Shown: positions 1,320 to 25,136 of the stretch, piece by piece
How positions within the stretch are numbered: position 1 is the first letter of the stretch
Layout of the letters: every line of letters starts with the position of its first letter
From: an uncultured delta proteobacterium
Lineage (GTDB): Bacteria > Desulfobacterota > Binatia > Binatales > Binataceae
DNA: 64,000 bases
Reading direction: 5' to 3'
NCBI GenBank assembly: GCA_963765675.1
Contig: CAVXXK010000005.1
Coordinates: 4,957-68,956, forward strand
Notes under the pieces: generated by a model
Database searches by the model: none
What the model saw: only the letters and a program-made list of their open reading frames with translations
Told to the model about the DNA's origin: nothing
Position numbers and translations under genes: made by a program

Positions 1320-1814
1320 TTATCGATGTGACTGCGCAAGCCGCCGCATCGGACCGCCGGACTTACCCAGATTGTCTGTCTGTCCAGCTTGAAGACCGAA
1401 ATGTTGGACCGAGCCGAGCGCCGCCGGAAGCTCGGATCGAGAAGGAAGTTGGCCAACCATGCAAAACTCCAGCTTTTGCGCAAGGGCTTGGGCATTGGGA
1501 CCGGAGGTCATGTCGTCGTGATCGCCGGGTACCTCGTGCACCTCGACGCCTCCCGAGGCGAGTCCGCCCCAGCCTAACTGATAGTCCTTTATGCTTACCT
1601 GGGAATCCGGACGCGTGCGCAAAAGAGTCAAGTGTCCCGGATATAACTGAGGCGTATAGTGAGCGGCAGCGAAGGCGTTGATGTCATGCATAGTTCCAAT
1701 ATGTTGCGGAACGGTCCGTCCCAACGCACGGTAGACTTCATAAATGATTTTAGTGACCCGCTTCTTCACGGCCGTGCGCGCATACTGCCATCGCCCCGGG
1801 CCGCGCAGCACCAT
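1320..1814 (-). CDS. C-terminal half of the NRPS thioesterase domain, out of frame with 1750..6918 (frame change near 1830-1845)
   Basis: The 164-aa ORF contains the TE catalytic-His region (VHEVPGDHDDM). The nucleophile motif GYSFGG lies in the other frame, at the end of the 1722-aa ORF. The two ORFs overlap by 65 nt. Confidence 0.75.
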   Translation of the reverse strand: MVLRGPGRWQYARTAVKKRVTKIIYEVYRALGRTVPQHIGTMHDINAFAAAHYTPQLYPGHLTLLRTRPDSQVSIKDYQLGWGGLASGGVEVHEVPGDHDDMTSGPNAQALAQKLEFCMVGQLPSRSELPAALGSVQHFGLQAGQTDNLGKSGGPMRRLAQSHR

Positions 1815-4800
1815 GCCGATCCGCGACCGGTAGCGATCCGATCTTCGCCCTCGCGTCCATCGATTTGAGTGACTGCCAGTGGTAGTGCCATTCGGGAGAA
1901 TCTAGCAGGGCCAAAAGACCAATAGTGTCTCCTTGCTGTATTAATTGGCGCCCCATTTCAAAAGTAACGAGGCCGCCGAACGAATACCCGGCTAGATAGT
2001 AAGGACCTGACGGCTGCTTTGTCTTGATTTCGCGAATATAGTGCGCCGCCATATCTTCCAGACGAGTCAGATATGGTTGCGACCCGTCCAGACCCGGTGG
2101 CTGCAAGGCAAACAAGGGACGGTCCGGGTGAAGGTAGCGCGTCAAGTCATTAAAGCGAATTACGTTTCCGCCAAGGCCGGAGATTATGTATAGCGGCGGG
2201 AGCGAACCACTGTGCCGGATTGCTACCAGTGACGACGACGGCGGCCTCCATCCATCCTGGCGCAAGATTTCAGCGAGCCCCTGGATGCTCGGTGTATCAA
2301 GCAGTGTGGATAGGGGCAACTTGGTCCCCCAACGCTGATTGATCCTCGAGAACAGCCGCATAGCAAGTAGCGAATGACCGCCGAGATGAAAGAAGTTGTC
2401 AGTAACCCTGATTTGTCGGACCCCGAGAACCTCCTCCCAGATTTCGATCAGCTCCGCTTCGAGCGAATCGCGATGTGCCTTGGGCAGGTGAGTGCGCTCG
2501 CTGTCGATTGCATCTTCTGTAGCCAATGCAGATCGACTTACGTGGCCATCCACATCTATCGGCAGCGAGTCTACGAATCGGAACTGAGAGACTTGAGGAC
2601 CATCTGGAAAAGATTCGGCTACTCGTTTCTTCAATCGCACCTCTAGTTCGCTTAAGGGCTTCGAAAAGGCAATCCGGGCATCAACCACTGCGTAGACTTC
2701 AACCTGCTGGCATTCCGAGGCCCGCCCACATGGCACCGCTAGGACTTCCGACAGCGACGGTTCGAGCATCAGGGCCGCTTCCAACTCGCCCACGTGGGTC
2801 CGGAAGCCGCCAATATTGACGTGTCGGCTGGACGGACCTAAAACGTCGATTTTGCCGTCGGACAAATAACGCCCCAGTTCGCCCGTCCTGAACCACGTTC
2901 CATTGAGCGCTTTGGAAAATCGAAAACTCGCCGCAGTAGATTTCTCGTCGCCCAGGTAGCCGCTCGCGAGTTCCGGCCCTGCGATACATATCATCGCCGG
3001 CACGCCCGCGGGCACCGGCTGCATATTCTCGTCGAGCAATCGAATCGCGAACCCTGGCGATGGAACGCCCAGAGTCAGGGCCTGATCTTCAACTCTGCCC
3101 TCGCTCCGCGCTTCAAAGATCGCCGCATGGTGCGACACTTCAACGCCTCCGTACGACACGAGCAGACGAATCTGTCCTCGCGCGACGCGTTGAAATGCAG
3201 CCACCGCGAGTTTCGACGGTCTGTCACCATAAAGGACAATCTTCTGAACGCATTGCGGAAAATCACGTCTCTCTTTCCCACCGCGCAATATCATGCGCTG
3301 CCAGAATCGAGTCGGCAGGATCAGCACACTGCATCGATGTCCTTCAACGAACTGCCGATAACGCGCGTCTGACTCCAATACGGTCGAAGGTACAAAAACG
3401 ATCGTGGCGCCAGCAATCAGCGATGAGAACACAAGCTCAACAGCAGGCGTCGAGTTAATCAATGCGATTCGATCCTCTGCGCGCAAACCGTAGGTCTCGA
3501 CGCCCGTCCATGCGCGGACATCAAACGCGCGCTGGCTGACTTGTGCTAGCTTTGAGTCGCTCGACGTCGACGATACCAACTGAATGATCGCCGTACGCGC
3601 GCCGTCCTCTTTGGACGACGTTCTCAGTGCGGCACACTCCGCGTTCACGTGCGTTTCATCGACACACACCACTTGCAGCCCGCGTCGGCGAAAAAGTTTT
3701 CGCCACCTTCTGCAAGTGATGACCGCCTTGATGCCATGCTCGTTCAACGCGCCCACACCGGCATTTTTCGAATCATCCGCGGGCAACAGCATAAACGCGG
3801 CACCGGCCTTGCCGGCCGCCAGCATGCCAATCACTAGATCTGGCAAATAGTCACTACAAATCGCGATTGTTCGGCTCGGAGCCAAATCCACTTTAACTAG
3901 CCGGCTCGCGAGTTGACTCGCACGATGATCAAGTTGCCCGTAGGTTAAAGTCTCATTGCCGGATATTATCGCTACTGCTTCAGACTTTTGACGAGCGAAC
4001 GATTCAATCCGACTGAGCGCCGGCTCGTGCTTCGCCGTTGCGGCGCCGAGACCGGCGCGGGAAATCATCTCGGACTCGTCAGTAGTCAGAATCGGAATTT
4101 GATTGATCCGCTGCTCCGGGTCGCAGAGAACGCAGTCTATGATCTGTTGAAAATGGCCGAGCATTCTCCGAGCCGTGCTCGCGTCAAACAAATCGGGCTT
4201 ATATTCCAATCGCGCAACGATCTCTCCGTCGCGCTCAAACGTTGCTAAATGGAGATCGAATTCGGTTCCAGAGCAATGCCACGTGATCGGAGTCCAACGA
4301 CACTCCTGAGTCTGTATGGTCTGCAAAAAGGCGACCTGATGAAAGAAATAGAATTGGAACAACGGATTGCGGCCTTGTATCTGCTCGACCTGTAGCTCGT
4401 CGACCAGATAGCGAAACGGTAAGTCCTTATGAGCCAACGCTTCTAGAGTCACCTCTCTGATGCGATGCACCAACTCGCTGAAAGAAGGATTTCCGTGAAG
4501 GCTGGTCCGCAGGCTTATCGGATACGCGAAGGATCCAACGATGCTCTCGGCGTCATCTGTCCGGCCCGACACGGGCGAACCTACTAAAATATCTTCCTGT
4601 CCGGTATAGCGTTTCAGCATCAACTTGAAGATCGCCAAGAAGAGCATGAAGGTCGTGATCTCCTCGCGTTTACAGAAGTCCTTCACAGCAACGACAGAAG
4701 CTCCGGCTATGTGGACGGTTTCGGTCGCACCTCGGGATACGAGTGCTGGCCGAAGCGGTCGGTCGCCCGGCAGATCGAGCAATGGTAGCCGGCCTTGAAG

Positions 4801-6918
4801 CTGCTTTTTCCAGTAGCTGAGGTACGGTTCAAAGTCGGCATTTTTGAGCCACTCGCTCTGCCAGTGCGAAAAGTCCGCGTACTGGAGAACGGAATCAGAA
4901 AGCGGCGAAGCCAAACCCTGTGAGTATGCGTCGTAGAGCGTGGTCAATTCGCGAACCACGATTCCGCTGGTCCATCCGTCGCAAACTATATGGGGCATCG
5001 TGAGCATCAAGATGTGCTCGCGCTCCTCCAGCTGGATAAGTCCCGCGCGAAAAATTGGACCTTGCGCGAGATTAAATGGCCGAACTGCCTCCTCACGAAT
5101 CAATTCTTGCGCCCTAGATTCTCGCTCGGTCTCGGAGGCGATTCGGAGATCCACCACTTCTAAGCTCGCGTCGTAGGGCGGGTGAATCACTTGCATCGGT
5201 TCGTCGTTCAACACGGAAAAAGTGGTCCGCAGCATCTCGTGACGCTTCACCAGATCCGTAAGACATCGGCGAAGCACAGTCGGGTCCAAGGTACCACTGA
5301 CCCTGAGCACTGCCGGCATATTGAGCATCGGATTACCCGGCATCAACTGCTCGAAAAGCCAAAAGCGCTGCTGGTTGATAGTGATCGGAAGGGCGTAGCT
5401 ATCAGACGCGGGCGACTCCGTCCCATCAGAGGCGTTGAGTGCTGTGCCACAAGAAGAGGCGTCTAACGAGTCGGACGTTCCGCGATTCGGAGCTAACAGA
5501 CCATCTAGAATTGCGCTCGTTCGCGTCGCCGGGAGATCAGTAGCTGTTTCCGACTTCGCTGGAACCAGCGCCAGCTGAAGTTCTGAGATCCGCTGATCTG
5601 GATTTCCTGCGACGCGCTCGAGCGTACCGCGATAGTTATCGAGCAATCCGCCGATAGTGCTAGGTTCGAATAGATCAGTATTGTATTCGCACGAGAGACG
5701 CCACCCCTCTGTGCGCATCACCAGGAAAATATTCAGTTCGTAGGGCGCGCCCTGCGATTTCGAGGGTATTGTGGTCAGCGTGATCCCTGAAAACTCCAGC
5801 GGTATGACCGCGTCGCGCTCGCAAATGAAGTTCAGCGGACAAAGGCCATGATGGCTCGGATAAACTTGAGGCTGAACCTCGGCAAGCAATTGTTCAAAGC
5901 GAAGGTTCTGGTTCACAAGCGATTCGGTTGCAGTCTTTTGTACGCGGCGCAGCAATTCGCAAAAGCTTGGATCGCCGGAAACATCGAACCGGAGAATCAC
6001 CGTGTTGATAAATAATCCGACCAGCGGCTCGAGGTCCAGGCTATCGCGTCCCGCTACTTGCGTGGACACTCCGAAGCTTGTTTGCCGCGTGTAGTGAAAC
6101 ACGAGGATGGCGAGGGCGGCCGCTGTAATCTGGAAAAACGTGGCACCTTCTTGATTAGCTATATGACCAAGGGAGTCACTGAGTTCCATTGGAAGCAGCG
6201 TCGATACGATCGCGGAATTGTAGGTTGGACGTTCAGATCTTGGACGGTCCGTAGGAAAGGTCGCAACGGGAAGTTGTGTTAGCTGTGTTCTCCAGTAAGA
6301 AAGATCATTTTTTACTTGTGCATCCTGCAAATGGTTGTGTTGCCAGATTGCATAGTCACCGTACTGAATCGTAAGTGGAGCAAGGTGCGGCTCCAGACGG
6401 TGGGAATATGCCGTGTAGAATTCTGCAAGTTCCTTTGCGATGACGCCGATCGACCAGTAGTCAGCAATCGAGTGATGAATCGTGAGAGTCATCACATAGT
6501 CGCAATCGCCGGCCTGCAGAAGACGGGCCCGCAGCAGAGGTCCGGCAGCCAAATCGAAGTGCTGATGTGCTGCCTCGAGGCAACGGCGGTCAACCGTGTC
6601 GGCGCGCTGAGCTTCAGGGAGGTGTCGGAGGTCTTCCATGGATAGCGTCACCGCCATCGAAGGAGCGATGATCTGAGATACGCGCCCATCGACGGTCGCG
6701 AGATTGGTTCGCAGGACCTCGTGGCGCTGGACGATTCCTTGTAGAGAGCGCTCGAGTATGGCCGGATCGAGCGGTCCCCGAAGTGCAAACCGCACAGCGA
6801 GATTCCATGCCGGATTGCCCGGACTTAGGCGGTCCAATGCCCAGAAACGTTCCTGTGCGAGCGATGCGGGCAGGACGTAGGTATCTCCGTGATCGAGATT
6901 CGTCGCATCACTGCTCAT
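1750..6918 (-). CDS. non-ribosomal peptide synthetase, C-C-A(degenerate)-T-TE(N-terminal half)
   Basis: 1722 aa. C1 is aa 13-445 (HHSIADYWS; nt ~5584-6882). C2 is aa 507-945 (PHIVCDGWTSG; nt ~4084-5400). The A-like domain is aa ~965-1465 (nt ~2524-4026) and has degenerate core motifs. T is aa ~1483-1552 (FFHLGGHSL). TE starts at aa ~1563 (GYSFGG). Confidence 0.93.
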   Translation of the reverse strand: MSSDATNLDHGDTYVLPASLAQERFWALDRLSPGNPAWNLAVRFALRGPLDPAILERSLQGIVQRHEVLRTNLATVDGRVSQIIAPSMAVTLSMEDLRHLPEAQRADTVDRRCLEAAHQHFDLAAGPLLRARLLQAGDCDYVMTLTIHHSIADYWSIGVIAKELAEFYTAYSHRLEPHLAPLTIQYGDYAIWQHNHLQDAQVKNDLSYWRTQLTQLPVATFPTDRPRSERPTYNSAIVSTLLPMELSDSLGHIANQEGATFFQITAAALAILVFHYTRQTSFGVSTQVAGRDSLDLEPLVGLFINTVILRFDVSGDPSFCELLRRVQKTATESLVNQNLRFEQLLAEVQPQVYPSHHGLCPLNFICERDAVIPLEFSGITLTTIPSKSQGAPYELNIFLVMRTEGWRLSCEYNTDLFEPSTIGGLLDNYRGTLERVAGNPDQRISELQLALVPAKSETATDLPATRTSAILDGLLAPNRGTSDSLDASSCGTALNASDGTESPASDSYALPITINQQRFWLFEQLMPGNPMLNMPAVLRVSGTLDPTVLRRCLTDLVKRHEMLRTTFSVLNDEPMQVIHPPYDASLEVVDLRIASETERESRAQELIREEAVRPFNLAQGPIFRAGLIQLEEREHILMLTMPHIVCDGWTSGIVVRELTTLYDAYSQGLASPLSDSVLQYADFSHWQSEWLKNADFEPYLSYWKKQLQGRLPLLDLPGDRPLRPALVSRGATETVHIAGASVVAVKDFCKREEITTFMLFLAIFKLMLKRYTGQEDILVGSPVSGRTDDAESIVGSFAYPISLRTSLHGNPSFSELVHRIREVTLEALAHKDLPFRYLVDELQVEQIQGRNPLFQFYFFHQVAFLQTIQTQECRWTPITWHCSGTEFDLHLATFERDGEIVARLEYKPDLFDASTARRMLGHFQQIIDCVLCDPEQRINQIPILTTDESEMISRAGLGAATAKHEPALSRIESFARQKSEAVAIISGNETLTYGQLDHRASQLASRLVKVDLAPSRTIAICSDYLPDLVIGMLAAGKAGAAFMLLPADDSKNAGVGALNEHGIKAVITCRRWRKLFRRRGLQVVCVDETHVNAECAALRTSSKEDGARTAIIQLVSSTSSDSKLAQVSQRAFDVRAWTGVETYGLRAEDRIALINSTPAVELVFSSLIAGATIVFVPSTVLESDARYRQFVEGHRCSVLILPTRFWQRMILRGGKERRDFPQCVQKIVLYGDRPSKLAVAAFQRVARGQIRLLVSYGGVEVSHHAAIFEARSEGRVEDQALTLGVPSPGFAIRLLDENMQPVPAGVPAMICIAGPELASGYLGDEKSTAASFRFSKALNGTWFRTGELGRYLSDGKIDVLGPSSRHVNIGGFRTHVGELEAALMLEPSLSEVLAVPCGRASECQQVEVYAVVDARIAFSKPLSELEVRLKKRVAESFPDGPQVSQFRFVDSLPIDVDGHVSRSALATEDAIDSERTHLPKAHRDSLEAELIEIWEEVLGVRQIRVTDNFFHLGGHSLLAMRLFSRINQRWGTKLPLSTLLDTPSIQGLAEILRQDGWRPPSSSLVAIRHSGSLPPLYIISGLGGNVIRFNDLTRYLHPDRPLFALQPPGLDGSQPYLTRLEDMAAHYIREIKTKQPSGPYYLAGYSFGGLVTFEMGRQLIQQGDTIGLLALLDSPEWHYHWQSLKSMDARAKIGSLPVADRHGAARPGAMAVCAHGREEAGH

Positions 6919-6946: not shown

Positions 6947-9900
6947 TCATGAGGAGCCAACCTTCTGATCCGGTACTATCGTTTGGCTTAACCTATACTT
7001 TGCGCGAGAAACTGGAACGATGGCTGGCATCGGGATGGTAGTCCCGTTTTGATTTTCGTTTTCGGCGTGCGCAAGCAACCCTTCGATCGTCCTGTACTTA
7101 AAAAACAACGGCGCAGCTACGCGCATGCCTGCCCTGGTTGCACGCGCTGCGATTTGAAAGATGTGCAGAGAGTCTGCGCCCAATTCGAATAGATCGTCCC
7201 GGATTCCGACCCTCTCCAAGTGAAGAATCTCGGCCCAGATCTCTGCCAGCGTTCTCTCAGAGGCGGTCCGTGGACCGACAAACTCATGACTGCGCGAGAA
7301 TTGAACCGTGGCCGGAGCTGGGAGCGCACACCGGTCGAGTTTTCCGTTCGGCGTAAGTGGCATCGAGTCCAGACGCACCACTGCGGATGGCAGCATATAG
7401 TCGGGCAGCTTCCCGATCAGAAATTCGCGGACTGCTGTAACGGTCAGCGCCTGCTGATTGGAGACCACATAGGCAACCAGTCTCCGGTCGCCAGGGGTGT
7501 CCTCACGAAGAATTACCGCGGCACCGGTCACTCCCGGATGCTTAGCCAGCGCCGATTCAATCTCTCCGAGTTCGATGCGGAAACCGCGCAGCTTCACCTG
7601 ATTGTCGAACCTGCCCACAAACTCAAGAGTACCGTCGGTCAGCCGCCGAACCCGGTCACCCGTCCGATACAGGCGCTCATTTCCGTCGACCCGGAATGGA
7701 TCTCGGATAAACTTCTCCGAGGTCAGCGCCTGCTGGTGAAGATATCCGCGCGCGACGCCGGCACCGCCGATATACAATTCGCCATCACATCCTATCGGAG
7801 CGAGCTGCCCAGCTTGGTCGAGCACATAGAACTGCGTATTATCGATCGGGAATCCAATTGGCACAGGACCCGGTCCAGGTTCAACTCGGATCGCGGACGA
7901 CCAAATCGTAGTTTCGGTCGGACCGTACATATTCCAAACGGAACTCGTCCGCTCCAACAACTGGGTTGCCAGCTCGCGGGATAGGGCCTCGCCGCCACAC
8001 AAAACCTTAAGCGTAGAACGTTCCGCCCATCCTGCTTCGATCAGGAGTGCGAACGTAACTGGGGTTGCCTGGATTGCCGTTGCGCCGGACTGGCGCAGGC
8101 GAGCGAGGAGCTGACTGCCATCGGACGCCTCCGCACGACTCGCAATGACCATTTTCGCTCCGACCGTAAGGGGCAGGAATATTTCCAGCGCCGCGATGTC
8201 GAACGAGAGCGTAGTGACCGCGAGCAACGTATCGTGGCAGCCGAGACCGGGGGTCTTGCTCATCGAGTGTAAGAGATTGACGACCGCACGGTGCGGAATC
8301 TCGACGCCCTTGGGTTTACCCGTCGAGCCCGAGGTATATATGACATACGCAAGGTCTTCGGAACTGACCGTGGGCCTCGGATCGTTTTCGCTGTCTTCTC
8401 GCGTAATCGCGCTCCAATGACTATCCAGGTAAAGAACCCGTCTGGAGCCCGGCGGCACGCTACGAGCCAGACTCTCCTGCGTCAATAATATCGGGACCTT
8501 CGCGTCTTCGAGCACGAAGGAGATGCGTTCTGCAGGATAGGTCGGGTCCATCGGTACATACGCGGCACCAGTTTTGAGGACGCCGAGCAAAGCCGTGACC
8601 ATGTCCAGCGACCGTTCGACAAATACCCCGACCAGCATTCCGACACCGACGCCGAGTTTCTGCAAATGCCGCGCTAGTTGATCGGCACGGTGATTCAGTT
8701 CGAAGTATGTTAATTGCCGGCCCTCGTACACCACCGCCACCGCGTCGGGAGTGCGCTGGGCCTGAGCCTCGAAAAGCTGATGGACGCAGCGTTCGGTCGG
8801 AAACTCGGCCTGAGTATCATTCCAACTGGCGATGATGCGCTGATGCTCGGCGGTCGATAGCAATGGCAGCGAGGAGATCCTCTGATTCGGATCAGCGCTC
8901 ATCGCTCCCAACAAAGTAGCGTAGTGCCCCAACCAACGCTCTATCGTTGCTTGGTCGAACAGGCCGGTATTGTAGTCGCAGTCGAGCATCAGGCCGTCGG
9001 CCGACTCAATGATGTTCAGAAATAGGTCCTGATTGACGAACGATTTGGCATTTGGCTCGATCGTCAGCTCGAGTCCGGAAAACTCGATGCCGGAACCCAT
9101 TCGCTCGAGGTTGAATTGAACCTCCGTCAGTGGCAACCGACTCGGATCGCGCTTGATCGGCAGCTTTCGAATCAAACGGCCATAAGTATAGTTCTGATGT
9201 TCGTACGCATCGAGGAGGGTACGTCTTACCTGAGCGAGATATTGCGCTGCTGAAAGACTATTCACGACCTCGCCGCGCAATGGCAGAAAATTGACACAAT
9301 GACCAACCAGGCTCTCGCCGTCGAGTGCCGCCTGTCCGGCAGCGGGAATTCCGATAACAATGTCTTCCTGCCCGCTGAGGCGGCTCAGTAGAATCTGAAA
9401 TGCGGCCAGTAACATGACAAATAGCGTGCATTTTTGCTGCGCGCCGGCCAGTTTGATATCTCGATAAGATTCCGCCGGAATCCGCAGACGACAGGTAGCT
9501 CCCTCATAGGATCTGGTGGCGGGTCGTGGCCGATCCAGAGGCAACTCGAGAAAAGCCGGAAGCGTGCTGAACTGCTCCTGCCAATAGGTCTCTAGAGCGG
9601 AAAGGTTGGAGCTCTGGAAGTGCTTCGCTTGCGACTCCGCGTATGCGCCGAAAGTCATCGGCTCTGGAAGCTCGTATGAGCGTCCCGCGCACGCCGCATT
9701 GTAGAGTCGGCGAACTTCGTCAAGAATTATATTTGTCGACCATCCGTCACACACGATATGATGCGCGGTGAATATAAAACGATACTCGCCGGGTCTGACT
9801 ACTATGAGATTTGCGCGGACCAGCGGACCGCGTTCGAGATCGAAGGGCGATCTTGCATCATCGGCAATGAATTGTGCCAGCCGCTTTTCGCGTGATTGAC

Positions 9901-12900
9901 CGTCAAGCGGTGTCAAATCCACAATCGGAATTACAAGCTTGGGGTCGGGCACGAATTGTTGGTATTCGCCGTTAGCGTCGAATTTCGCCCTCAGCGCCTC
10001 GTGCCGGGCAACTACCCTGTCGACGGCTGCGAGAAATGCTGCTACGTCGAGATTGCCGCGTAGCTTCAAAGTGAACGATTCGTTGTAACAACACGACGCT
10101 TGTTCACTGAGCTTTGCGGAGAGCCAAATCTCCTTTTGTGATTCAGTCAAGGGCGCCTGCCGCACTGGAACCGTGTGCGTGTTCTCCTTGATCGAAGTCA
10201 ATCCAGGTTCGGGTGGCTCCGGAGTAATGCCGTTGCCATTCAGGTGCGAAACGGAGCCATTGCGCGGCAGTTCCATGGGCTCCGAGTGCGGAGCCGGCAG
10301 GAATCCCGCAGCCTGGATCTCGAGCACGGACTCCCTGAACGCCTGAATCACCCGCGCGATATCTTCGTCGCTGTGCGCGGTGGTCAGAAACAGAGGAAAC
10401 CCTTCTTGAATATGTACTCCGCGTGCGCGCAAATAATAGTACAGCAGGCCTGCATGGATCAGTTCAGCAGGTAGCGTGAAATACGCAATTGATCCGAAGG
10501 TATCAACATGCGCCTGAACCTCCCGCTCTTCAAACAATGCATTCAAGGCATCGGCCATGTGCGTGGTTTTATTCGCGAGGTGCTCCCATAGTTCAGGTCC
10601 CGCGGTGTTTAAGTGATTGAGTACTGCAAATGCCGCGGCCAGGGCGAGTGGATGTCGCACGAATGTTCCTGCGAAGAACGTCACGCCCGTCTCAGGATAT
10701 GAATTGTCGCCGTAGTTCCACGTTCCACCGTCGAGCGCGTCCATAAAGGCGCTTGTGCCAGCAAGGACGCCAATTGGCAGTCCGCCACCCAGAACCTTTC
10801 CGTAAATCGCGAGGTCGGCCTTGATTCCGAACAGCGCCTGACAGCCTCCGCGATGCACCCGAAACCCTGTAACTACTTCATCGAAGATGAGCGCGGTTCC
10901 TGATTGCCGCGTGATACGTCTGACCTCCTTCAGAAAGTCGATCGGCTGCAGCGCGGGATGGCGGCTCTGAACTGGCTCAACCAGAACCGCCGCGAGTTCG
11001 CCTGCGTGAGCTTCGATGTAGCGCAGAGCTTCGGGCGTGCCGTAGTCAAGGACGATTACGTTCTCAACTTTTTCGCGCGGAATGCCGGGCGCCACGGGCA
11101 GTGAGCGCGGCCCATTTGGACCGTTGACGCCCTTGACCACTACTTCGTCGAACATTCCGTGATAGGCGCCCGTAAAGAGGACTATCTTGCTACGGGCTGT
11201 GATAGTGCGTGCCACCCGTAACGCCGCGGTCACCGCTTCCGATCCGGTATTGCAGAAGGTTACACGCTCCATCCCGGTCATGTCGCAGATAAGATCAGCG
11301 ACCTTGCCGGCTAACGGCGATTGCGGTCCGGTCTCATAGCCATGATCGAGCTGTTCGCGAATCGCCCGATTGACGAAATCCGGCGCATGGCCAAACATGA
11401 TAGGGCCGTATCCGTTTACCAAGTCGATATACTCATTCCCGTCAACGTCCCAGAGCTTCGAGCCGCTGGAACGAACGGTCACGATCGGGTAAACGATTTC
11501 CTTCCACTGCAGGCGAAATCCCGCGGCGACTCGAGGGTCAGCCAGGTGGCTCCGATGCTGCTGTGTCAGCCGCTTGGAGCCTGCGGTCTTCCTGCTGTAA
11601 CTCTCCACGAGTGCGCGCAGATGTTGTGATTGAAGAGGAGTTAGCTCCCGGGCTTTCCCTGCTTCAACCGGTACGAATGGAATAAATTTTCTCGGAGTAG
11701 GTCCGTGTAGTTTGACGGCCGCGGAGCCGTTCAATCCGTCCACAGGTTCTCGTTGCGCAGTGGCTACATGGACAGTTCTCGGGTCTGTGATCTGGTCAGG
11801 CACCGCGACGAATGCCTTGGTTTCCGTGTTCCTGAGAACCTCCAACTGTTTCGCCATCAGGTCCGAAAGCGTCTGAAGTTGGGTTTTGAATAGAAGCTGA
11901 AGATCCGGGCCGCCTCCAGCAGACGCAACAGCCGCATCTGCAGGGCGCGTCGCTGCGCGAGTTCCGCCCGCTGGCCCAGCTTCATTAGAGCACGGCAATT
12001 GGTGTTCGGAACGCGAGCTTTCTAGTTCGGCAATATCCGAAGCCCCTGAGGGTAGAGCTTGTGGCGGCAGTTTCTCATCAAGGTAGGCGGCCAGCGCGTC
12101 GAGAGTAGCCAGTTGATCGAGTAGTTGTCTGAACGTGATCTTCAGGCCAAACTCGGCGTGCAACATTTGCGAGACCTGGGTCAAAAATAGCGAATCGAAT
12201 CCGAATTCGAGAAAAGTAACCCCGCTGGCTGCGTCGCCGAGTCTGAGACCCGACAAATCCTCGAAAATACATTCCAGCCTCGACAGGATTCGTGCCTTGC
12301 GAGTCTCCAGTCGGGGCGACTGGATCGCCGTACCTTCTGAACTACCGGCCGCGCGCGCATCTTCGGGTCGCTGCCCATTAACAGATGCATGGAGGGAAGC
12401 CTTGTAGCTCTCAAGATCAGAACCAGATTTTTCGGTTGAGCTGGTCCGGGATGAATCTTCTTGGCCCGCAAGTGTGTCCGCGTTTCGCGCGGCGGGTCGC
12501 GGGCCGCACCAAAACCGCTTGCGTTCGAACGGGTAGAGCGGCAGCGAAACCCTGCGCCGCGAGTCGCCCGCATAGATTTGCGACCAGTTGGGTTGAGCCC
12601 CGTGCAGCCAGAGTTGGCCGAGAGCGTTCAGCACCGATTCCTCTTCGGTTTGCTGACCGTTACGACCGGGCATCGACGCAATCACGAGTTGATCAGGATT
12701 GTTCGCCTGATGCTGTCGCGCGAGCACCGACAGAGTGTTGCCCGGCCCGACTTCCAGCAGGGCGAAGTCTTCGGCCCGCAGTTTGGCTGCGCCGATTGAG
12801 AATCGCACCGGTAGCCGAAGATGATTCGCCCAGTATTCCGGATCGGTCGCTTCACGCGCCGTAATCCAGTCGCCAGTCACACTCGATAAAAACGGAATCT

Positions 12901-15151
12901 CGGGAATACTTATCCGCACCGGATCCAGTAACCGGAGGAAGGGCTCCCGAGCCGTATCCATCATGCTCGAATGGAACGCGTGAGAGGTCCGCAGCCGCTG
13001 GCAGACGATTCCCTCGCTCCCAAGCCGCTGCTCCAGTTCCGCGATCGCTTCGCAGGGCCCCGCGACCACGGTGAGTGATGGACCATTGACCGCCGCGAGG
13101 TTCGCAGCGGGACCGATAAAGCGCGCGACATCATCCTCGCTCAGTCGGACCGATAGCATCGCTCCCCGAGGAAGGTCGTGCATCAAGGCGCCGCGCCCGG
13201 CGACCAGCTTAAGCGCGTCCTCGAGAGAAAAAACACCTGCCATGCATGCTGCGACGAATTCGCCAATGCTATGGCCGATCATTGCCTGTGGACGAATACC
13301 TAATTGAAGCCAGAGCTGCGCCAATGCGTATTCGACGACAAACAGCGCAGGTTGCGCGATGGCAGTATCGTTGATTTCTTCGTCGGTTGGCAATGTATAG
13401 TTGGAATCAAACAGATTTCTCAGATTCGGTCCCGAGCCTGCGACGAGGATCTGCAGACAAATGTCGACTTGCTTCCGAAACTCAGGCTCGGCGAAGTATA
13501 GTTGCCGCCCCATCCCAACGTATTGCGATCCCTGTCCAGGGAACATGAATGCGACCGCGAGACGATTAGACGGTGTGATCCGTGTGAGTACTCGTCGGCT
13601 GCCGCCTGCCAGCACCGTTACCGCGTCAGCGGTGTCGTGAATCACGGTCATTCGACGGGCCTCGAAAGAATGACGGCCCATCATAAGTGTATATGCAACG
13701 TCGGCTAATTCAGCAGTCGGATTGGCCACCAGACTATCGGCCAAGTTCGACGTCGCCGCGTTGAGTGCGGCCTCGGTTTTGGCGGACACCAATATCAGGT
13801 GGGCCCCACGCCTCGACTTTGTGGCGAGAGCTTCCGGCGCCTCTTCCATGACTACATGCGCGTTTGTGCCGCCGATTCCAAAGGCGCTCACGCCCGCGCG
13901 TAGGGGCGTGGTGCCGCGCTGCCACGGCGAGAGGGCCGTGTTCACATAGAACGGCGAGTCTTCCAGATTCAGTTTCGGATTGGCGCTCTCGAAGTGCAAT
14001 GTCGGCGGCAACATCCGATGATGCAGCGACATCGCGGTCTTAATCAGCCCGGTCACTCCCGCCGCAACGTCCAGATGCCCAACGTTGGTCTTTGCCGTAC
14101 CCAGCGCGCAGAACTGCCGCCGCGTGGTCGAACGTCGAAAGGCCTGTGTCAGTGCGGCAATCTCAATCGGATCGCCGAGCGGAGTTCCAGTGCCGTGCGC
14201 CTCGATATATGAGATCGAGGCCGGGTCCACGCCGGCCGCGGAATGTGCCATCGCGATTGCGCTGGCCTGGCCGTCGACTCCTGGTGCGGTAAAGCCGACC
14301 TTTGCGGCGCCATCGTTGGTTACTCCGAATCCTTTAATCACGGCGTAGATCCGATCCCGGTCGGCAACCGCCTCCTGAAAACGTTTCAGGAGAACCACCG
14401 CGGCGCCATCACCGAAAACTGTGCCCTGGCTCGCGGCGTCGAAGGTTCGGCAATGACCATCGGGCGATACCATCCCTCCCGGCTCGTATAGGTAGCCGCG
14501 CCTCTGCGGAAACGTGATCGAAACGCCGCCGGCTAGCGCCATATCACATTGATAGTTCTGCAGGCTGAGACATGCCTGCGATACGGCGACCAGTGAAGTA
14601 GAGCATCCGCAGTTAAGTGAGAATGCAGGTCCGCGCAAGTTCAGTTTGTAAGCGACCCGGGTCGGCAGAAATTCGAAATTGCTGCCCAGCGTAGTAATAA
14701 AGTTACTTACCTGATAACCGGCCGTATACTGAGAGATGTCATCGCGATTCGAGCATACGTGTTGTGCGAAGTAGCTATTGAAACTGCACCCCGCGAACAC
14801 CGCGGTAATACCCGTGTACACCAGCGGGTCATAGCCGGAATCTTCGAACGCATGCCAGCAGCACTCCAAAAACATCCGCTGTTGAGGGTCGATCAGCTCA
14901 GCCTCTTTCGGATAAATGCCGAAGAACGCGGCATCAAACTTGTCGGCATCCTCGATGATCGCGCGCGCGCGCACGTAGTTGGGCATCCCGGAAACCGCTG
15001 CGGCGTCATCGATTTCGAGCTCCCCCGGCGCAAAGTGAGTGATCGATTCAACGCCCGCGCATAGGTTGCGCCAGAACTCGTTGATGTCCCGAGCTCCCGG
15101 GAATCTGCCGGCCATCCCGATAATCGCGATGTCAGTCAGAGCGTCACTCAT
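6947..15151 (-). CDS. hybrid PKS-NRPS megasynthase, KS-AT-ACP-aminotransferase-C-A(Gly)-T
   Basis: 2734 aa. KS is aa 6-437 (GCSTSL Cys183, EAHGTGT, NVGH; nt 13841-15136). AT is aa 532-835 (GHSIGE, HAFH = malonyl type; nt 12647-13558). ACP is aa 951-1027 (GFDSL; nt 12071-12301). The PLP aminotransferase is aa ~1170-1617 (NTGSEAV, IFDEVVTGFR, YGKVLGGGLPIG; nt 10301-11644). C is aa 1664-2095 (HHIVCDGWS; nt 8867-10162). A is aa 2120-2610 (YTSGSTGKPKG, YGPTE, YRTGD, GRFDNQVKLRGFRIELGEIE, NGKLDR; nt 7322-8794). T is aa 2627-2695 (LGADSL; nt 7067-7273). Confidence 0.96.
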   Translation of the reverse strand: MSDALTDIAIIGMAGRFPGARDINEFWRNLCAGVESITHFAPGELEIDDAAAVSGMPNYVRARAIIEDADKFDAAFFGIYPKEAELIDPQQRMFLECCWHAFEDSGYDPLVYTGITAVFAGCSFNSYFAQHVCSNRDDISQYTAGYQVSNFITTLGSNFEFLPTRVAYKLNLRGPAFSLNCGCSTSLVAVSQACLSLQNYQCDMALAGGVSITFPQRRGYLYEPGGMVSPDGHCRTFDAASQGTVFGDGAAVVLLKRFQEAVADRDRIYAVIKGFGVTNDGAAKVGFTAPGVDGQASAIAMAHSAAGVDPASISYIEAHGTGTPLGDPIEIAALTQAFRRSTTRRQFCALGTAKTNVGHLDVAAGVTGLIKTAMSLHHRMLPPTLHFESANPKLNLEDSPFYVNTALSPWQRGTTPLRAGVSAFGIGGTNAHVVMEEAPEALATKSRRGAHLILVSAKTEAALNAATSNLADSLVANPTAELADVAYTLMMGRHSFEARRMTVIHDTADAVTVLAGGSRRVLTRITPSNRLAVAFMFPGQGSQYVGMGRQLYFAEPEFRKQVDICLQILVAGSGPNLRNLFDSNYTLPTDEEINDTAIAQPALFVVEYALAQLWLQLGIRPQAMIGHSIGEFVAACMAGVFSLEDALKLVAGRGALMHDLPRGAMLSVRLSEDDVARFIGPAANLAAVNGPSLTVVAGPCEAIAELEQRLGSEGIVCQRLRTSHAFHSSMMDTAREPFLRLLDPVRISIPEIPFLSSVTGDWITAREATDPEYWANHLRLPVRFSIGAAKLRAEDFALLEVGPGNTLSVLARQHQANNPDQLVIASMPGRNGQQTEEESVLNALGQLWLHGAQPNWSQIYAGDSRRRVSLPLYPFERKRFWCGPRPAARNADTLAGQEDSSRTSSTEKSGSDLESYKASLHASVNGQRPEDARAAGSSEGTAIQSPRLETRKARILSRLECIFEDLSGLRLGDAASGVTFLEFGFDSLFLTQVSQMLHAEFGLKITFRQLLDQLATLDALAAYLDEKLPPQALPSGASDIAELESSRSEHQLPCSNEAGPAGGTRAATRPADAAVASAGGGPDLQLLFKTQLQTLSDLMAKQLEVLRNTETKAFVAVPDQITDPRTVHVATAQREPVDGLNGSAAVKLHGPTPRKFIPFVPVEAGKARELTPLQSQHLRALVESYSRKTAGSKRLTQQHRSHLADPRVAAGFRLQWKEIVYPIVTVRSSGSKLWDVDGNEYIDLVNGYGPIMFGHAPDFVNRAIREQLDHGYETGPQSPLAGKVADLICDMTGMERVTFCNTGSEAVTAALRVARTITARSKIVLFTGAYHGMFDEVVVKGVNGPNGPRSLPVAPGIPREKVENVIVLDYGTPEALRYIEAHAGELAAVLVEPVQSRHPALQPIDFLKEVRRITRQSGTALIFDEVVTGFRVHRGGCQALFGIKADLAIYGKVLGGGLPIGVLAGTSAFMDALDGGTWNYGDNSYPETGVTFFAGTFVRHPLALAAAFAVLNHLNTAGPELWEHLANKTTHMADALNALFEEREVQAHVDTFGSIAYFTLPAELIHAGLLYYYLRARGVHIQEGFPLFLTTAHSDEDIARVIQAFRESVLEIQAAGFLPAPHSEPMELPRNGSVSHLNGNGITPEPPEPGLTSIKENTHTVPVRQAPLTESQKEIWLSAKLSEQASCCYNESFTLKLRGNLDVAAFLAAVDRVVARHEALRAKFDANGEYQQFVPDPKLVIPIVDLTPLDGQSREKRLAQFIADDARSPFDLERGPLVRANLIVVRPGEYRFIFTAHHIVCDGWSTNIILDEVRRLYNAACAGRSYELPEPMTFGAYAESQAKHFQSSNLSALETYWQEQFSTLPAFLELPLDRPRPATRSYEGATCRLRIPAESYRDIKLAGAQQKCTLFVMLLAAFQILLSRLSGQEDIVIGIPAAGQAALDGESLVGHCVNFLPLRGEVVNSLSAAQYLAQVRRTLLDAYEHQNYTYGRLIRKLPIKRDPSRLPLTEVQFNLERMGSGIEFSGLELTIEPNAKSFVNQDLFLNIIESADGLMLDCDYNTGLFDQATIERWLGHYATLLGAMSADPNQRISSLPLLSTAEHQRIIASWNDTQAEFPTERCVHQLFEAQAQRTPDAVAVVYEGRQLTYFELNHRADQLARHLQKLGVGVGMLVGVFVERSLDMVTALLGVLKTGAAYVPMDPTYPAERISFVLEDAKVPILLTQESLARSVPPGSRRVLYLDSHWSAITREDSENDPRPTVSSEDLAYVIYTSGSTGKPKGVEIPHRAVVNLLHSMSKTPGLGCHDTLLAVTTLSFDIAALEIFLPLTVGAKMVIASRAEASDGSQLLARLRQSGATAIQATPVTFALLIEAGWAERSTLKVLCGGEALSRELATQLLERTSSVWNMYGPTETTIWSSAIRVEPGPGPVPIGFPIDNTQFYVLDQAGQLAPIGCDGELYIGGAGVARGYLHQQALTSEKFIRDPFRVDGNERLYRTGDRVRRLTDGTLEFVGRFDNQVKLRGFRIELGEIESALAKHPGVTGAAVILREDTPGDRRLVAYVVSNQQALTVTAVREFLIGKLPDYMLPSAVVRLDSMPLTPNGKLDRCALPAPATVQFSRSHEFVGPRTASERTLAEIWAEILHLERVGIRDDLFELGADSLHIFQIAARATRAGMRVAAPLFFKYRTIEGLLAHAENENQNGTTIPMPAIVPVSRAKYRLSQTIVPDQKVGSS

Positions 15152-15193: not shown

Positions 15194-17125
15194 TCACCCC
15201 GCGCGTCGCGACAGCATTTCGCGCTGACGCCGAGCCCGAAGTTGCAGATCGTTGCCGACCGGCGAAAATTGGCTGTCGCCGCTCAGATGCTCGGCGAGGG
15301 TCGCAACGGTCGGGTATTGAAACAGATCCGTGATTATCAACTTTTCGGCGAGCAAGCGCTGCAGTTTGGAGTGGACCTCGATCAGTTGCAGCGAATCACC
15401 ACCGAGGTCGAAGAAGCTCGTGTCCACCTCAACCGCCGGCAGATGCAGGACATCGCGCCAGACCGAAGAGATTGTCGTTTCGATTTTGCTCAACCGCCCC
15501 GTGGGTTCTCGATTGGATTGTGAGGCCACCGCGTCTTCGCGAAGCCGCACGAGCGCATCACGATCGATCTTGCCATTGCGAGTCAGCGGAATTTCAGCGA
15601 CCGCCACGAACGCCGCCGGGATCATATAGTGCGGCAGCTTCTCCATAAGAAATGCGCGCAATTCTTGCTGCGCGGGTGCAGGGAACGAATGCGGCGTTAC
15701 ATATGCGACCAACCGCTTTTCCTCGCAGGTATCTTTTTCCGCCACGACCACGGCATCGCGGATGGCCGGATGCTGGCGCAGGGTCTCGGCAATCTCACCG
15801 GGTTCGATTCGATATCCAAATATTTTGACCTGATCGTCCATGCGTCCCAGAAATTCAAGGGCGCCATCGGCGCGATACCGGACGAGATCGCCGGTGCGAT
15901 AGAGGCGCTGCGAGGACTCCGCGGCCCAGGCGGGCACCACAAATTTTTCCGCAGTCAGATCGCCCTGGTTCAAGTACCCTCGAGCGACTCCATCACCACC
16001 GATGTAGAGCTCTCCAACTTCTCCCACCGCCACCTGATTGAACTCGGAATCCAGCACCCACACCGGGGTTCCGGCGATCGGAAATCCGATTGGAACCGAA
16101 GGTCCTTCCAGATATTCCGGGTGCGCAGTAAGACACACCGCAAAGGTCGTCGCCTCTGTCGGGCCATAACCATTTACGAGCCGGCAACCGGGCAACGCCG
16201 CGACCGCGGTGCGAAAATGCGCAAGCGATCCCGAATCGCCGCCAGTTACTAACTGCTTGAGTCGGCAGAGTGCATCTGGATGATGATCGATCATCAGATT
16301 GAACAATCCCGCCGGAAGCCAGACTGTGCTGATTTCATAACGGCGAATGGCCGCCGCGATATCCTCGAGCGCCGGCGTCCCCGGCGGCAGGAGCACCAGG
16401 CTGCCCCCGTTCAGCAAGGGTCCCCAGATTTCAAGTGTTGCCGCATCGAAGCAGACTGGCGCTAACTGCATGAACCGCTGGCCGGCGTCGAACGATAGAT
16501 AGTCCGTGTTTTTCACCAGGCGAATGACGCCGCGATGTTCGATCAGGACGCCCTTGGGCGAGCCGCTCGAGCCCGAGGTGTACATCACGTAGACAAGGTT
16601 GTTAGCAGCGACCCGTGCATTGAGATTAGCTCCGTCGCGTAATCCGATCGCGGCTGCTTCGCGATCGATTAGCAACAGCTTTGAGAGCTCATCCGGCAGT
16701 GACCCGATGCATGAGGAATCGGTGATCACGATCGGCGCGCGCGTATCCCTCAGCATGAATGCAAGGCGCTTGCGGGGATAATCGGGATCAAGCGGAACGT
16801 AAGCGCCACCGGCTTTGAGTACCGCGAGCATGGCGACCACTAAGTCGAATGAACGGCGCAGACAGACGCCGACCAATACTTCAGCCTGCACGCCCTGTGG
16901 GGCCAGATGGCGGGCCAGGCGATTGGCGCGCTCATTCAACTCACGGTATGTGATTTGCTCATCGCCCAGGATCAGCGCGATAGCCTCGGGGTTGTGAGCG
17001 GCCTGCTGCTCAAACCATCCATGGACCGTAGCGAGATGACTCTTTTCCGTACGCCGCCCGATGTCAGCCATTCGGCATTGGCCGTACCTCGATAGTGACG
17101 CTGACGATTCCGCACCCTTTACCAT
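15194..17125 (-). CDS. stand-alone NRPS adenylation-thiolation (A-T) protein
   Basis: Core motifs are YTSGSSGSPKG, GYGPTE, GELYIGGDGVARGY, YRTGD, GRMDDQVKIFGYRIEPGEI and NGKIDR, followed by the carrier motif LGGDSLQL. The ORF track extends to 17296 and overlaps the upstream gene. The ATG at 17125 (7 nt after the upstream stop) is preferred; the ATG at 17191 is an alternative. Confidence 0.9.
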   Translation of the reverse strand: MVKGAESSASLSRYGQCRMADIGRRTEKSHLATVHGWFEQQAAHNPEAIALILGDEQITYRELNERANRLARHLAPQGVQAEVLVGVCLRRSFDLVVAMLAVLKAGGAYVPLDPDYPRKRLAFMLRDTRAPIVITDSSCIGSLPDELSKLLLIDREAAAIGLRDGANLNARVAANNLVYVMYTSGSSGSPKGVLIEHRGVIRLVKNTDYLSFDAGQRFMQLAPVCFDAATLEIWGPLLNGGSLVLLPPGTPALEDIAAAIRRYEISTVWLPAGLFNLMIDHHPDALCRLKQLVTGGDSGSLAHFRTAVAALPGCRLVNGYGPTEATTFAVCLTAHPEYLEGPSVPIGFPIAGTPVWVLDSEFNQVAVGEVGELYIGGDGVARGYLNQGDLTAEKFVVPAWAAESSQRLYRTGDLVRYRADGALEFLGRMDDQVKIFGYRIEPGEIAETLRQHPAIRDAVVVAEKDTCEEKRLVAYVTPHSFPAPAQQELRAFLMEKLPHYMIPAAFVAVAEIPLTRNGKIDRDALVRLREDAVASQSNREPTGRLSKIETTISSVWRDVLHLPAVEVDTSFFDLGGDSLQLIEVHSKLQRLLAEKLIITDLFQYPTVATLAEHLSGDSQFSPVGNDLQLRARRQREMLSRRAG

Positions 17126-17132
17126 GCGCACG

Positions 17133-18824
17133 CTACGGCCCCAATTTGCCCGCGGTCTGTTCGCGTTCAATTCCGAAATCGCTTCTGACATTTCCAGCTC
17201 TAGCGACGCGGGTACGGTCTGCCCGACTCGGCAAGACTCTCTCCTTGCACCCGAATAATCTCTCCGCGACGATGCCGCGTTGGCAGGCCGTTGCAAGGAG
17301 CCGGTCTGATTCCACTATTGGATTGGAGAGATGGTCGTAGCGAATACTGCTGACGAACTGGAGCCACGGCTCCTGGCCCATCGCATATACGTAGAGCTCC
17401 CGGCAATTGAATTGCTCAACCAGGCCAAGCGCGCTCGAGTAGTCTGACGCGTTGGCTCGCCGCGACTGATCCATCGCTCGTTCCAACCGGCGGGTCAGCA
17501 ACGGACCATAGATCCAGCTTAGCGGTGCGCCGTCACATTCCATGCCGATGAACATCGTCTCGACATCGCCAATTTGATCGTGCACGTTCCGATACAGCGC
17601 GGGACTCAGGTTGCGCGAGTCCGCCAATAGCAGCATCGAATGGCAGCCACCCCGAACCAACCATGCGGTTTTGCTTCGGATAGCAAGGTCGCAGTGTTCA
17701 CCAGTGAATGGGATTGACTGGATGGAGCCGGAACCTAAGTCGATCGTTTCCATTTCGTCGATTTCGCGCACGTGTTTGAAGCCGCATGCCTCAAGGATCA
17801 GTTTCAGCGAAGGATCCTGAAGGGCACCGCCCGAGTTTTTAGGTACCAGGATGGTCCCGATTCGGTCCCGCAACTGGAGCAAAGTTTCCAGCAGGACATG
17901 ATCTTGATGCGCGTGCGTGAGCAGGACAAAGTCGATCGATTCAGGCAGGTCTGCGTAGGTGAATCGCTCGGACGCACCGTCGAAAGCGTAACCGATCGCC
18001 GGATCGGTGAGAATCGAGAAGTCACTGCTTTCAATAAGGACACATGCATGGCCGAAATATTTCCAGCTAACACCGGGCCCTTTATAGCTTGTAGATTTGC
18101 GGGGCTTTTCGTCTGTCAGGAATGACCTCAGGATAGCGTTGTTATGCTCTGATAGACCCAACACATCCCGAATTTCGCTGAAGGATGCCGGCTGGGACTT
18201 GAGGCGATATAAAGCGTCCACTGCGGCGCCGGCAAAGCGCACCCTCCAATTGATCGAATCCGGACTGGCGAGCCGCGGGGTGCTGAAAATGAACGGCCGA
18301 CCGTCGTCCTTGATTGCCGAAAGCATCAAGCTCTGGCCGTTCGGATCGTAGTATCGACTTGCATAAAGCAGCCGTTCGATAAACCTGTACGACGCCTGAT
18401 TTTGAAGATCGTAGCCGAGCTCAACGTAGCCCTGGAGCGCGGCCGGGACTAAACGATACAAGGGCTCCAGCGAGTACCCTTTCGCGTGATCGGTCAGCAA
18501 TGAATCGAGCTGGCCAATCGCGGCGGATAGCTCAATCAAATTATGCCGCGCAGCAATCGTATGATCGCGCAAAGCGGAAATTTCGGCGATTCGGGCATGC
18601 TCGAAACTCATGAACGGGCCGCCCGCCAGGTTTGGATCGCGTGCCGCTGCCGCGTGGCCATCTGGGTTGCTTAAGTAAGACTCCATTATCCGCAGATGAC
18701 GCTCAGTCAGATTGCGGGCGGAGGTTGCAGGCGCGACCAAATGCGGCCAAGCGTACCACTGATCGATCAGCGGTTCGACTGCGATATTTGGCCGCAGGTA
18801 TAGCTTGTCGGTACTACGATGCAC
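17133..18824 (-). CDS. MBL-fold diiron protein, CmlA-like amino acid beta-hydroxylase candidate
   Basis: 563 aa, with a ~250-aa N-terminal domain followed by a metallo-beta-lactamase fold. It has THAHQDH (H304, H306, D308, H309; nt 17898-17915) and downstream acidic residues E376 (FTGEH), D402 (LLADS) and E429 (GMECDG). It sits immediately upstream of a stand-alone A-T, like the CmlA/CmlP pair. Confidence 0.6.
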   Translation of the reverse strand: MHRSTDKLYLRPNIAVEPLIDQWYAWPHLVAPATSARNLTERHLRIMESYLSNPDGHAAAARDPNLAGGPFMSFEHARIAEISALRDHTIAARHNLIELSAAIGQLDSLLTDHAKGYSLEPLYRLVPAALQGYVELGYDLQNQASYRFIERLLYASRYYDPNGQSLMLSAIKDDGRPFIFSTPRLASPDSINWRVRFAGAAVDALYRLKSQPASFSEIRDVLGLSEHNNAILRSFLTDEKPRKSTSYKGPGVSWKYFGHACVLIESSDFSILTDPAIGYAFDGASERFTYADLPESIDFVLLTHAHQDHVLLETLLQLRDRIGTILVPKNSGGALQDPSLKLILEACGFKHVREIDEMETIDLGSGSIQSIPFTGEHCDLAIRSKTAWLVRGGCHSMLLLADSRNLSPALYRNVHDQIGDVETMFIGMECDGAPLSWIYGPLLTRRLERAMDQSRRANASDYSSALGLVEQFNCRELYVYAMGQEPWLQFVSSIRYDHLSNPIVESDRLLATACQRGIVAERLFGCKERVLPSRADRTRVARAGNVRSDFGIEREQTAGKLGP

Positions 18825-24975: not shown

Positions 24976-25136
24976 CGAGCGAAACGGGTGCGATTTATTT
25001 TTCCGCGGATGCGAATGACGCTTCGCGTCGCCGACGGGCCGTCGGCATCCACTGGCAGACATAAGATGAGAGAGCCATCAGGACCGGCGTCGCGCCGGTC
25101 TCTCCTGAGCGTCGAGCGACATAGAATCCGCAATAG

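Follow-up and report, generated by a model that had tools for sequence, protein, structure and literature searches.

The 64,000-nucleotide stretch of DNA analysed here, referred to below as the window, derives from an uncultured member of the Binataceae (assembly GCA_963765675.1, contig CAVXXK010000005.1, positions 4,957 to 68,956) and carries a cluster of polyketide synthase (PKS) and nonribosomal peptide synthetase (NRPS) genes, among them the hybrid gene P0001 (Table 1). P0001 is a single uninterrupted frame coding for 2734 amino acids (aa), in which Pfam recognises a ketosynthase (KS), an acyltransferase (AT), an aminotransferase (AMT), a condensation (C) and an adenylation (A) domain together with two phosphopantetheine-binding sites, those of an acyl carrier protein (ACP) and of a thiolation (T) domain, in the order KS-AT-ACP-AMT-C-A-T that a first-pass annotation made from the sequence had also read. 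The protein begins directly with the KS, likewise as annotated, with nothing else N-terminal to it, and in its orthologue from a genome of the same genus (G005) the sequence again opens with MSDALTDIAIIG, immediately preceded by a stop. The KS retains its catalytic residues (Cys183 in CSTSL, His319 in HGTG and His359 in GHL), and the AT carries GHSIGE at residues 626-631 (Ser628) and HAFH at 724-727, the latter being the motif from which its malonyl-specific type had already been recognised. The phosphopantetheine serines are Ser987 (in GFDSLF) for the ACP, a domain 30-57% conserved across related loci, and Ser2661 (in GADSLH, with DSL at 2660-2662) for the T domain, while the C-domain motif HHIVCDG occupies residues 1797-1803. 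No Pfam match to a ketoreductase (KR), dehydratase (DH) or enoylreductase (ER) was found anywhere in P0001, and the AMT is placed by Pfam between the ACP of this KR-less PKS module and the C domain. The closest solved KS-AT structures are 8xjy and 8xju (E 1e-237), whose title, just 'Polyketide synthase', is uninformative on the type of primer. Proteins of 85-90% identity exist (P0007-P0010).

Residues 1170-1617 of P0001 align end to end with residues 8-454 of the crystallised AMT of MycA (6kfm; E 1.3e-135, 456 bits), and the MycA structure 6kfu is matched full-length as well, whereas free glutamate-1-semialdehyde aminomutases (GSAMs) are a much weaker match (E 1e-57, 199 bits). Pfam Aminotran_3 (PF00202) spans residues 1222-1583 with an E of 1.4e-50. 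The class-III aminotransferase of the first-pass annotation is present where it had been placed, and its four quoted motifs lie at residues 1246-1257, 1299-1307, 1421-1431 and 1450-1461. Lys1452 (in YGKVLGGG), which had been presumed to form the Schiff base with pyridoxal phosphate (PLP), pairs with the lysine of MycA 6kfm and of the GSAM 3bs8, and Asp1424 (in LIFDEVVTGFR) pairs with the aspartate in IFDEV of GSAM and IMDEI of MycA. Both residues are invariant in an alignment of embedded AMT domains (61 of 61), which confirms the assignment of the lysine. Conservation extends to the GSEA phosphate loop and the YHG motif. Two features are shared with MycA and not with GSAM, namely an N-terminal extension of about 50 aa (residues 1170-1220, aligning with MycA 8-58) and an insert of about 12 residues before the AGT motif, GGTWNYGDNSYP, which is common to MycA and a gap in GSAM. 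The insert follows the pattern DGGxW..D..P at 1474-1486, in which D1474, G1475, G1476, W1478 and P1486 are invariant among the 61 embedded AMTs and D1482 is found in 60 of them. Between the window and G005 the AMT is 88% identical, with a ratio of nonsynonymous to synonymous substitution rates (dN/dS) of 0.064. The AMT domain is real, complete and under purifying selection. Its 456-bit similarity to the biochemically characterised domain of MycA suggests that it transaminates an ACP-bound beta-keto thioester, and we give a probability of roughly 0.75 to the reading that the domain works as that of MycA does, transaminating a beta-keto thioester with PLP, and that the PKS module around it receives its primer from an NRPS carrier.

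To see what precedes the KS in such modules, we used the loci returned by a search with the AMT domain, 80 in all and from many phyla, about 60 of which have an embedded AMT and were domain-mapped with the window's own domains as queries. An amino-acid-type A-T lies immediately before the KS in almost all of these roughly 60 loci. In 11 of them (L014, L019, L021, L026, L031, L033, L036, L038, L045, L058 and L075) the A-T and the KS-AT-ACP share one open reading frame (ORF), and in about 30 further related loci the gene with the T domain ends just before the KS gene. When the genes are separate the spacing from T to KS is mostly 83-165 nt; in the window, where the A-T gene stops 42 nt ahead of the start of the KS gene, it is 106 nt and thus within the usual range, which indicates that the gene break falls in the linker. 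In a maximum-likelihood tree of KS domains, a branch with 100% SH-aLRT support divides the 56 sequences into 47 KSs fed by an NRPS carrier and nine without an upstream amino-acid-type A domain. The latter, with a match resembling a fatty acyl-AMP ligase (FAAL) or no A domain upstream, include the Bacillus iturin-type loci. The window KS lies well within the NRPS-fed clade, with L001 and L002 next to it. Since this clade also contains four KSs with no AMT after them, it follows the type of donor and not the presence of an AMT. When searched with a Bacillus FAAL-ACP query, the cluster returned nothing but its own two NRPS A domains, which are 22% identical to the query; neither in the window (Pfam, 20 further large ORFs) nor in the 5 kb beyond its start did a further adenylate-forming or loading domain turn up, and a free ACP was not found there either. 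Gene order, fusions, KS phylogeny, the absence of a rival loader and the start of the orthologue at the KS together point to the neighbouring A-T protein as the primer, and priming by it, not by a fatty acyl ligase, is in our opinion probable. This agrees with the first-pass annotation, which had the starter come in trans from the adjacent A-T protein. That annotation had also remarked on the lack of the usual acyl-ligase loading didomain; the didomain is indeed lacking, but its absence is not unusual. With 47 of 56 KSs fed by an NRPS it is the rule among the relatives of this AMT, and we rejected the missing loader as an unusual trait because it is the majority state among the relatives retrieved.

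Table 1. Features of the cluster in the window, with the evidence on which each was assigned (A* is the terminal A domain discussed in the text; TE, thioesterase).
Feature	Position in window	Strand	Evidence
Sulfotransferase, 3' part, running off the window start (G000:C5:4502-5350)	1..394	-	Pfam Sulfotransfer_1/_3
P0006, TIGR04325-family methyltransferase, 286 aa	454..1314	-	NCBIfam 199.7 bits vs cut-off 80
P0002, terminal NRPS, C-C-A*-T-TE	1320..6918	-	Pfam, code, frame comparison with G005
P0001, hybrid PKS/NRPS gene	6947..15151	-	open frame, Pfam set, dN/dS 0.117 vs same-genus orthologue
P0001 T domain, aa 2634-2695	7067..7252	-	PF00550, best PP-binding stretch
P0001 A domain (in-line), aa 2127-2604, Gly code	7340..8773	-	PF00501 and PF13193
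P0001 C domain, aa 1665-2106	8834..10159	-	PF00668, E 3.8e-93
P0001 AMT, MycA-type class-III, aa 1170-1617	10301..11644	-	6kfm match, PF00202
Lys1452 codon, PLP Schiff-base lysine	10796..10798	-	aligned to GK Lys of MycA and B. subtilis GSAM
Asp1424 codon, PLP pyridine-N contact	10880..10882	-	aligned to DE(V/I) Asp of GSAM/MycA
P0001 ACP, aa about 946-1035	12047..12316	-	PP-binding stretch, DSL at 986-988
P0001 AT, aa 535-813, malonyl type	12713..13549	-	PF00698, E 4.8e-49, motifs
P0001 KS, aa 7-388	13988..15133	-	Pfam PF00109/PF02801, motifs
P0003, stand-alone A-T protein, proposed KS loader	15194..17125	-	Pfam A and T, code
P0004, CmlA-like diiron beta-hydroxylase	17133..18824	-	PF18456 CmlA_N, E 1e-83, and metallo-beta-lactamase fold

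To read the specificities of the A domains, we aligned these with MAFFT, used the conserved motifs A4, A5 and A10 as anchors, to which the PheA numbering was assigned, and took the residues at the ten Stachelhaus positions. The mapping is validated by its recovery of canonical codes in other loci, i.e. DLTKIGEVGK (Asn) in the post-AMT domains of Bacillus and codes for Thr, Ser, Pro, Cys and Gly elsewhere. For the in-line A domain of P0001 it returns DILQLGMIWK, with the equivalents of Asp235 and Lys517 both present, the same code that had been read by hand and assigned to Gly; an identical signature has been reported for domains that activate Gly (PMC12283262). The stand-alone protein P0003 has the code DALWVGGTFK, a Val-type member of the DA(L/F)W(I/L)GGTFK class and one conservative change away from DALWIGGTFK, a code that ranks with the most frequent ones of the Leu/Ile/Val group and has been used as a Val-domain sequence (PMC12283262). 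Most likely P0003 activates Val, the code by itself also allowing Ile or Leu. A Val-type starter paired with the identical Gly code recurs in L014 and L075 and, with a starter that is Val- or Ile-like, in L004.

Next to P0003 lies the CmlA-like protein P0004, which is conserved in G005 (82%) and in L002 (57%); CmlA and FrsH hydroxylate amino acids while these are bound to a carrier. A route can be proposed in which the stand-alone A-T would activate a Val-type amino acid and hold it on its own T domain, where the diiron enzyme would hydroxylate C-beta of the tethered residue to give 3-hydroxy-Val-S-T. The KS would accept this aminoacyl group through Cys183, His319 and His359, the AT would load malonate onto Ser987 of the ACP, and a Claisen condensation would yield a 4-amino-5-hydroxy-5-methyl-3-oxohexanoyl thioester, whose 3-keto group would persist because the module is without KR, DH and ER. 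The AMT, with PLP on Lys1452 and with Asp1424, would then turn the ketone into an amine, the donor being Gln by analogy with MycA, so that a vicinal diamine, 3,4-diamino-5-hydroxy-5-methylhexanoyl-S-ACP, would result. The C domain would then link this diamino acyl group with the Gly carried by the last T domain, from where the chain would proceed to the C-C-A*-T-TE protein. The predicted unit is thus most likely 3,4-diamino-5-hydroxy-5-methylhexanoyl-Gly and not a beta-amino fatty acid. The beta-amino-acid module of the first-pass annotation stands as an AMT module, with its product refined to a vicinal beta,gamma-diamino acid, because the starter would be an alpha-amino acid of the Val type, probably beta-hydroxylated. 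The amine donor of the MycA AMT itself is Gln (PMC3870968). The sequences establish the identities of the domains, their catalytic residues and specificity codes, the gene fusions, the clade of the KS and the purifying selection; the chemistry assigned to each domain is drawn from homology and the substrates are drawn from codes and neighbours, and the timing of the hydroxylation, the amine donor and the final product are inferred as well.

Several points weigh against this reading. The sub-family of NRPS-primed AMTs is known from sequence alone and is product-orphan throughout, and in the literature we found neither a characterised compound containing a vicinal or beta,gamma-diamine of PKS origin nor a characterised assembly-line route to one. 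The Val specificity and the hydroxylation are taken solely from the code and from family membership. Ahead of its amination, a free gamma-amino beta-keto thioester could close on itself to form a pyrrolidinedione, and the cluster is without a starter C domain that would N-cap the valine. The fusions and the synteny are also compatible with an A-T protein that serves, additionally or instead, the A-less terminal carrier. Finally, in the terminal protein the code of the A domain, TPEIVYSHHH, has lost the equivalents of both Asp235 and Lys517, so that this A domain is dead, and its TE is split: GYSFGG lies in the frame of ORF 1750-6918 and GDHDDM in that of ORF 1320-1814, due to one extra base near 1835-1843, while the TE of G005 (L086, G005:C2 6173-6931) lies in a single frame. 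The line in this genome may therefore release no product. Public contigs over the break are just shallow, fragmented Logan contigs from soil metagenomes, none of which bridges 1743-1836.

These last observations would also fit a correctly encoded module whose pathway is decaying in this strain, the AMT being an intact part of a dying accessory cluster that gives no finished product. The separation of the TE nucleophile region from its His region, joined in one frame in G005, the loss of both key residues in the terminal A domain and the occurrence of the cluster in just 2 of 40 relatives with conjugation genes at its flank are all in accordance with decay. However, P0001 has remained one open frame of 2734 aa with a dN/dS of 0.117 overall, and of only about half that value in the AMT, a break of a single base is possibly an assembly error, and terminal modules without an A domain recur in intact relatives such as L001-L004, so that a dead A* by itself does not amount to decay; on balance we consider decay rather unlikely. 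A different question is whether the KS receives an aminoacyl group at all. Were it primed in trans, as in iturin-like systems, by a fatty acyl-ACP or acyl-CoA of primary metabolism, the AMT would make a beta-amino fatty acid, and the A-T protein and the hydroxylase would provide a residue at some other point of the line, for instance at the junction of the tandem C domains or on the terminal carrier with its missing or dead A domain. Such priming would be consistent with a protein that starts at the KS without an N-terminal docking region, with a terminal protein whose two C domains are accompanied by a dead A domain in need of a trans-acting one, and with a layout equal to the core of MycA. 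It is made improbable by the failure to find a FAAL, an acyl ligase or a free ACP in the window or the 5 kb beyond its start, by the position of the KS in a clade set apart from FAAL-fed KSs at 100% support, by the covalent joining of the homologous A-T to such a KS in 11 loci, and by a T-to-KS spacing in keeping with that of the fused linkers.

The activity of the AMT itself could also be other than the transamination of a beta-keto group, if the domain has kept an aminomutase-like or other PLP-dependent activity of the GSAM type, such as an amino shift or a racemisation on the carrier-bound chain. The best NCBIfam PLP matches are indeed models of GSA aminomutases (about 260-270 bits, all under their cut-offs), and the vicinal amino-ketone intermediate is similar to an aminomutase substrate. 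With the MycA AMT far closer than any GSAM, an insert and an N-terminal extension that have no counterpart in GSAMs, and a placement after the ACP and before the C domain in a module without a KR, we regard this as highly improbable. From all of this, amination of an amino-acid-primed beta-keto thioester is the reading that we prefer.

The comparison with known systems shows which parts of this line are familiar. MycA, ItuA and BmyA of Bacillus (mycosubtilin, iturin and bacillomycin) share with P0001 the KS-AT-ACP-AMT-C-A-T core, the lack of a KR and the C domain directly after the AMT, and the MycA AMT structures 6kfm, 6kfr and 6kfu have the same Lys, Asp, insert and N-terminal extension. In contrast to P0001, proteins of this type start with a fatty-acyl ligase and an ACP, and the A-like matches in the Bacillus loci L047 and L049 are just 21-22% identical; their KSs fall in a clade of their own, the residue that follows the AMT step is Asn (DLTKIGEVGK) instead of Gly, and their product is a beta-amino fatty acid instead of the beta,gamma-diamino acid predicted here. 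McyE and NdaF (microcystin and nodularin) are mid-line KS-AT-ACP-AMT-C-A-T proteins without a loader of their own, in which amination of a beta-keto thioester yields a beta-amino acid (Adda); compared here by description and not by sequence, they have a KS that receives a long polyketide chain from upstream PKS modules and not an aminoacyl group. The stand-alone or terminal A-T accompanied by an enzyme with CmlA_N and a metallo-beta-lactamase fold is known from CmlP/CmlA (chloramphenicol) and FrsH-type systems, in which the hydroxylated aminoacyl group goes to a C domain or a reductase, whereas in the route proposed for the window it would be passed to a KS for C-C extension.

Predicted lines with the same logic have already been catalogued. 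A survey of assembly-line PLP domains from 2013 lists the layout A-CP-KS-AT-CP-PLP (CP, carrier protein) in C6XWU5 of Pedobacter heparinus, and also F7QBN5 of Salinisphaera (PMC3870968), and in 2024 a Val-primed C-A(Val)-T-KS-AT-ACP-AMT was described in silico for OA858_07105 of Pseudanabaena galeata (PMC11356792). As in the window, an amino-acid A-T is followed in these lines by a malonyl-specific KS-AT-ACP, a GSAM-like AMT and an NRPS module, and the starter in Pseudanabaena is likewise predicted to be Val. Their A-T is fused while that of the window is a separate protein, and the window adds the CmlA-like hydroxylase, the sulfotransferase, a JmjC-like protein, the TIGR04325 methyltransferase and the C-C-A*-T-TE end. 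The transaminases of microsclerodermin and solanimycin were considered as precedents and set aside, since they act on polyketide parts and not on amino-acid-primed ketones. In the protein database, more than 120 clusters of proteins of about 2700 aa share this Pfam set, with AMTs that are at least 65% identical; they come mostly from soil metagenomes and metagenome-assembled genomes of Acidobacteriota, and all have generic names. Other layouts were also met among the retrieved loci. In six cyanobacterial loci (L032, L037, L039, L046, L052 and L053, at about 8500-11350) a C-A-T is followed by a gap of about 1.3 kb and then by a MycA-like AMT of 48-54% identity; no KS or AT was detected in the gap, which matched none of the domain queries. 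In Nostoc sp. FACHB-110 (L029:6731-13743) KS-AT-ACP-AMT is followed by a TE-like segment and a second AMT-like segment of 44% identity, and this AMT module seems to terminate without a downstream NRPS module.

The genes around the assembly line recur in part in its relatives. P0006 has no Pfam match even at E 5 and no sequence match in the PDB; its homologues adjoin AMT genes in L001, L002, L014 and L075. In two of these loci, both cyanobacterial, the TIGR04325 methyltransferase lies between the AMT gene and the next NRPS gene (L014:11548-12342; L075:11527-12378 and 12456-13274, where it is duplicated). In G005 an orthologue of the sulfotransferase (72%) occupies the corresponding place. On the opposite strand, a little beyond the window start, lies a JmjC/cupin-like gene (G000:C5:3565-4533, +; Pfam Cupin_8, E 6e-8), and homologues of 35-46% identity were seen near amino-acid-primed AMT genes of several phyla (L014:12456-13277, L022:11624-12463, L002:18674-19558 and L004:1117-1965). 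In Nostoc, Alkalinema and Chamaesiphon the AMT gene is followed immediately by homologues of the JmjC-like protein or the methyltransferase, which suggests that these enzymes tailor the diamino unit; the JmjC-like protein is a candidate dedicated tailoring enzyme. In detail, the JmjC-like gene comes directly after the AMT gene in Nostoc and after an intervening methyltransferase in Alkalinema. G005 retains the whole gene set from the Crp regulator to the JmjC-like gene; it has two tandem Crp/Fnr-type regulators (G005:C2, L087 region, combined coordinates 23691-24536 and 24991-25851), both of which share about 78% identity with the single copy of the window. The conjugation genes for VirB8, VirB9 (CagX) and VirB10 (TrbI) flank the cluster 1.5-5 kb beyond the window start (G000:C5:1-3129, L082), TrbI being split over two overlapping ORFs (2-922 and 211-1179). 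As the AMT is present in just 2 of 40 related genomes and conjugation genes flank the cluster, the latter is accessory and probably mobile.

Taken by itself the AMT domain is textbook material, and the layout of the module, catalogued in the 2013 survey and again by genome mining in 2024, is still product-orphan; the window cluster opens no long-standing question. Its value lies in its context, i.e. in the more than 120 protein clusters of this layout of about 2700 aa in soil metagenomes, all of them product-orphan and all predicting a vicinal diamino acid by way of an amino acid, malonyl extension and transamination, a shared design to which the window adds a carrier-dependent beta-hydroxylase and a sulfotransferase. 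The sister cluster of G005, in which the TE is intact, is a reasonable candidate for heterologous expression by which the chemotype could be revealed. With somewhat less than even confidence we suggest that this abundant family of soil bacteria may produce small peptides with a vicinal beta,gamma-diamino acid at their core. In the window this acid would derive from valine and bear a hydroxyl group, and the co-conserved sulfotransferase, JmjC-like and TIGR04325 enzymes might in addition O-sulfate and methylate it. If this is true, the JmjC-like and methyltransferase genes that recur directly behind the AMT gene would encode enzymes devoted to tailoring the diamine.

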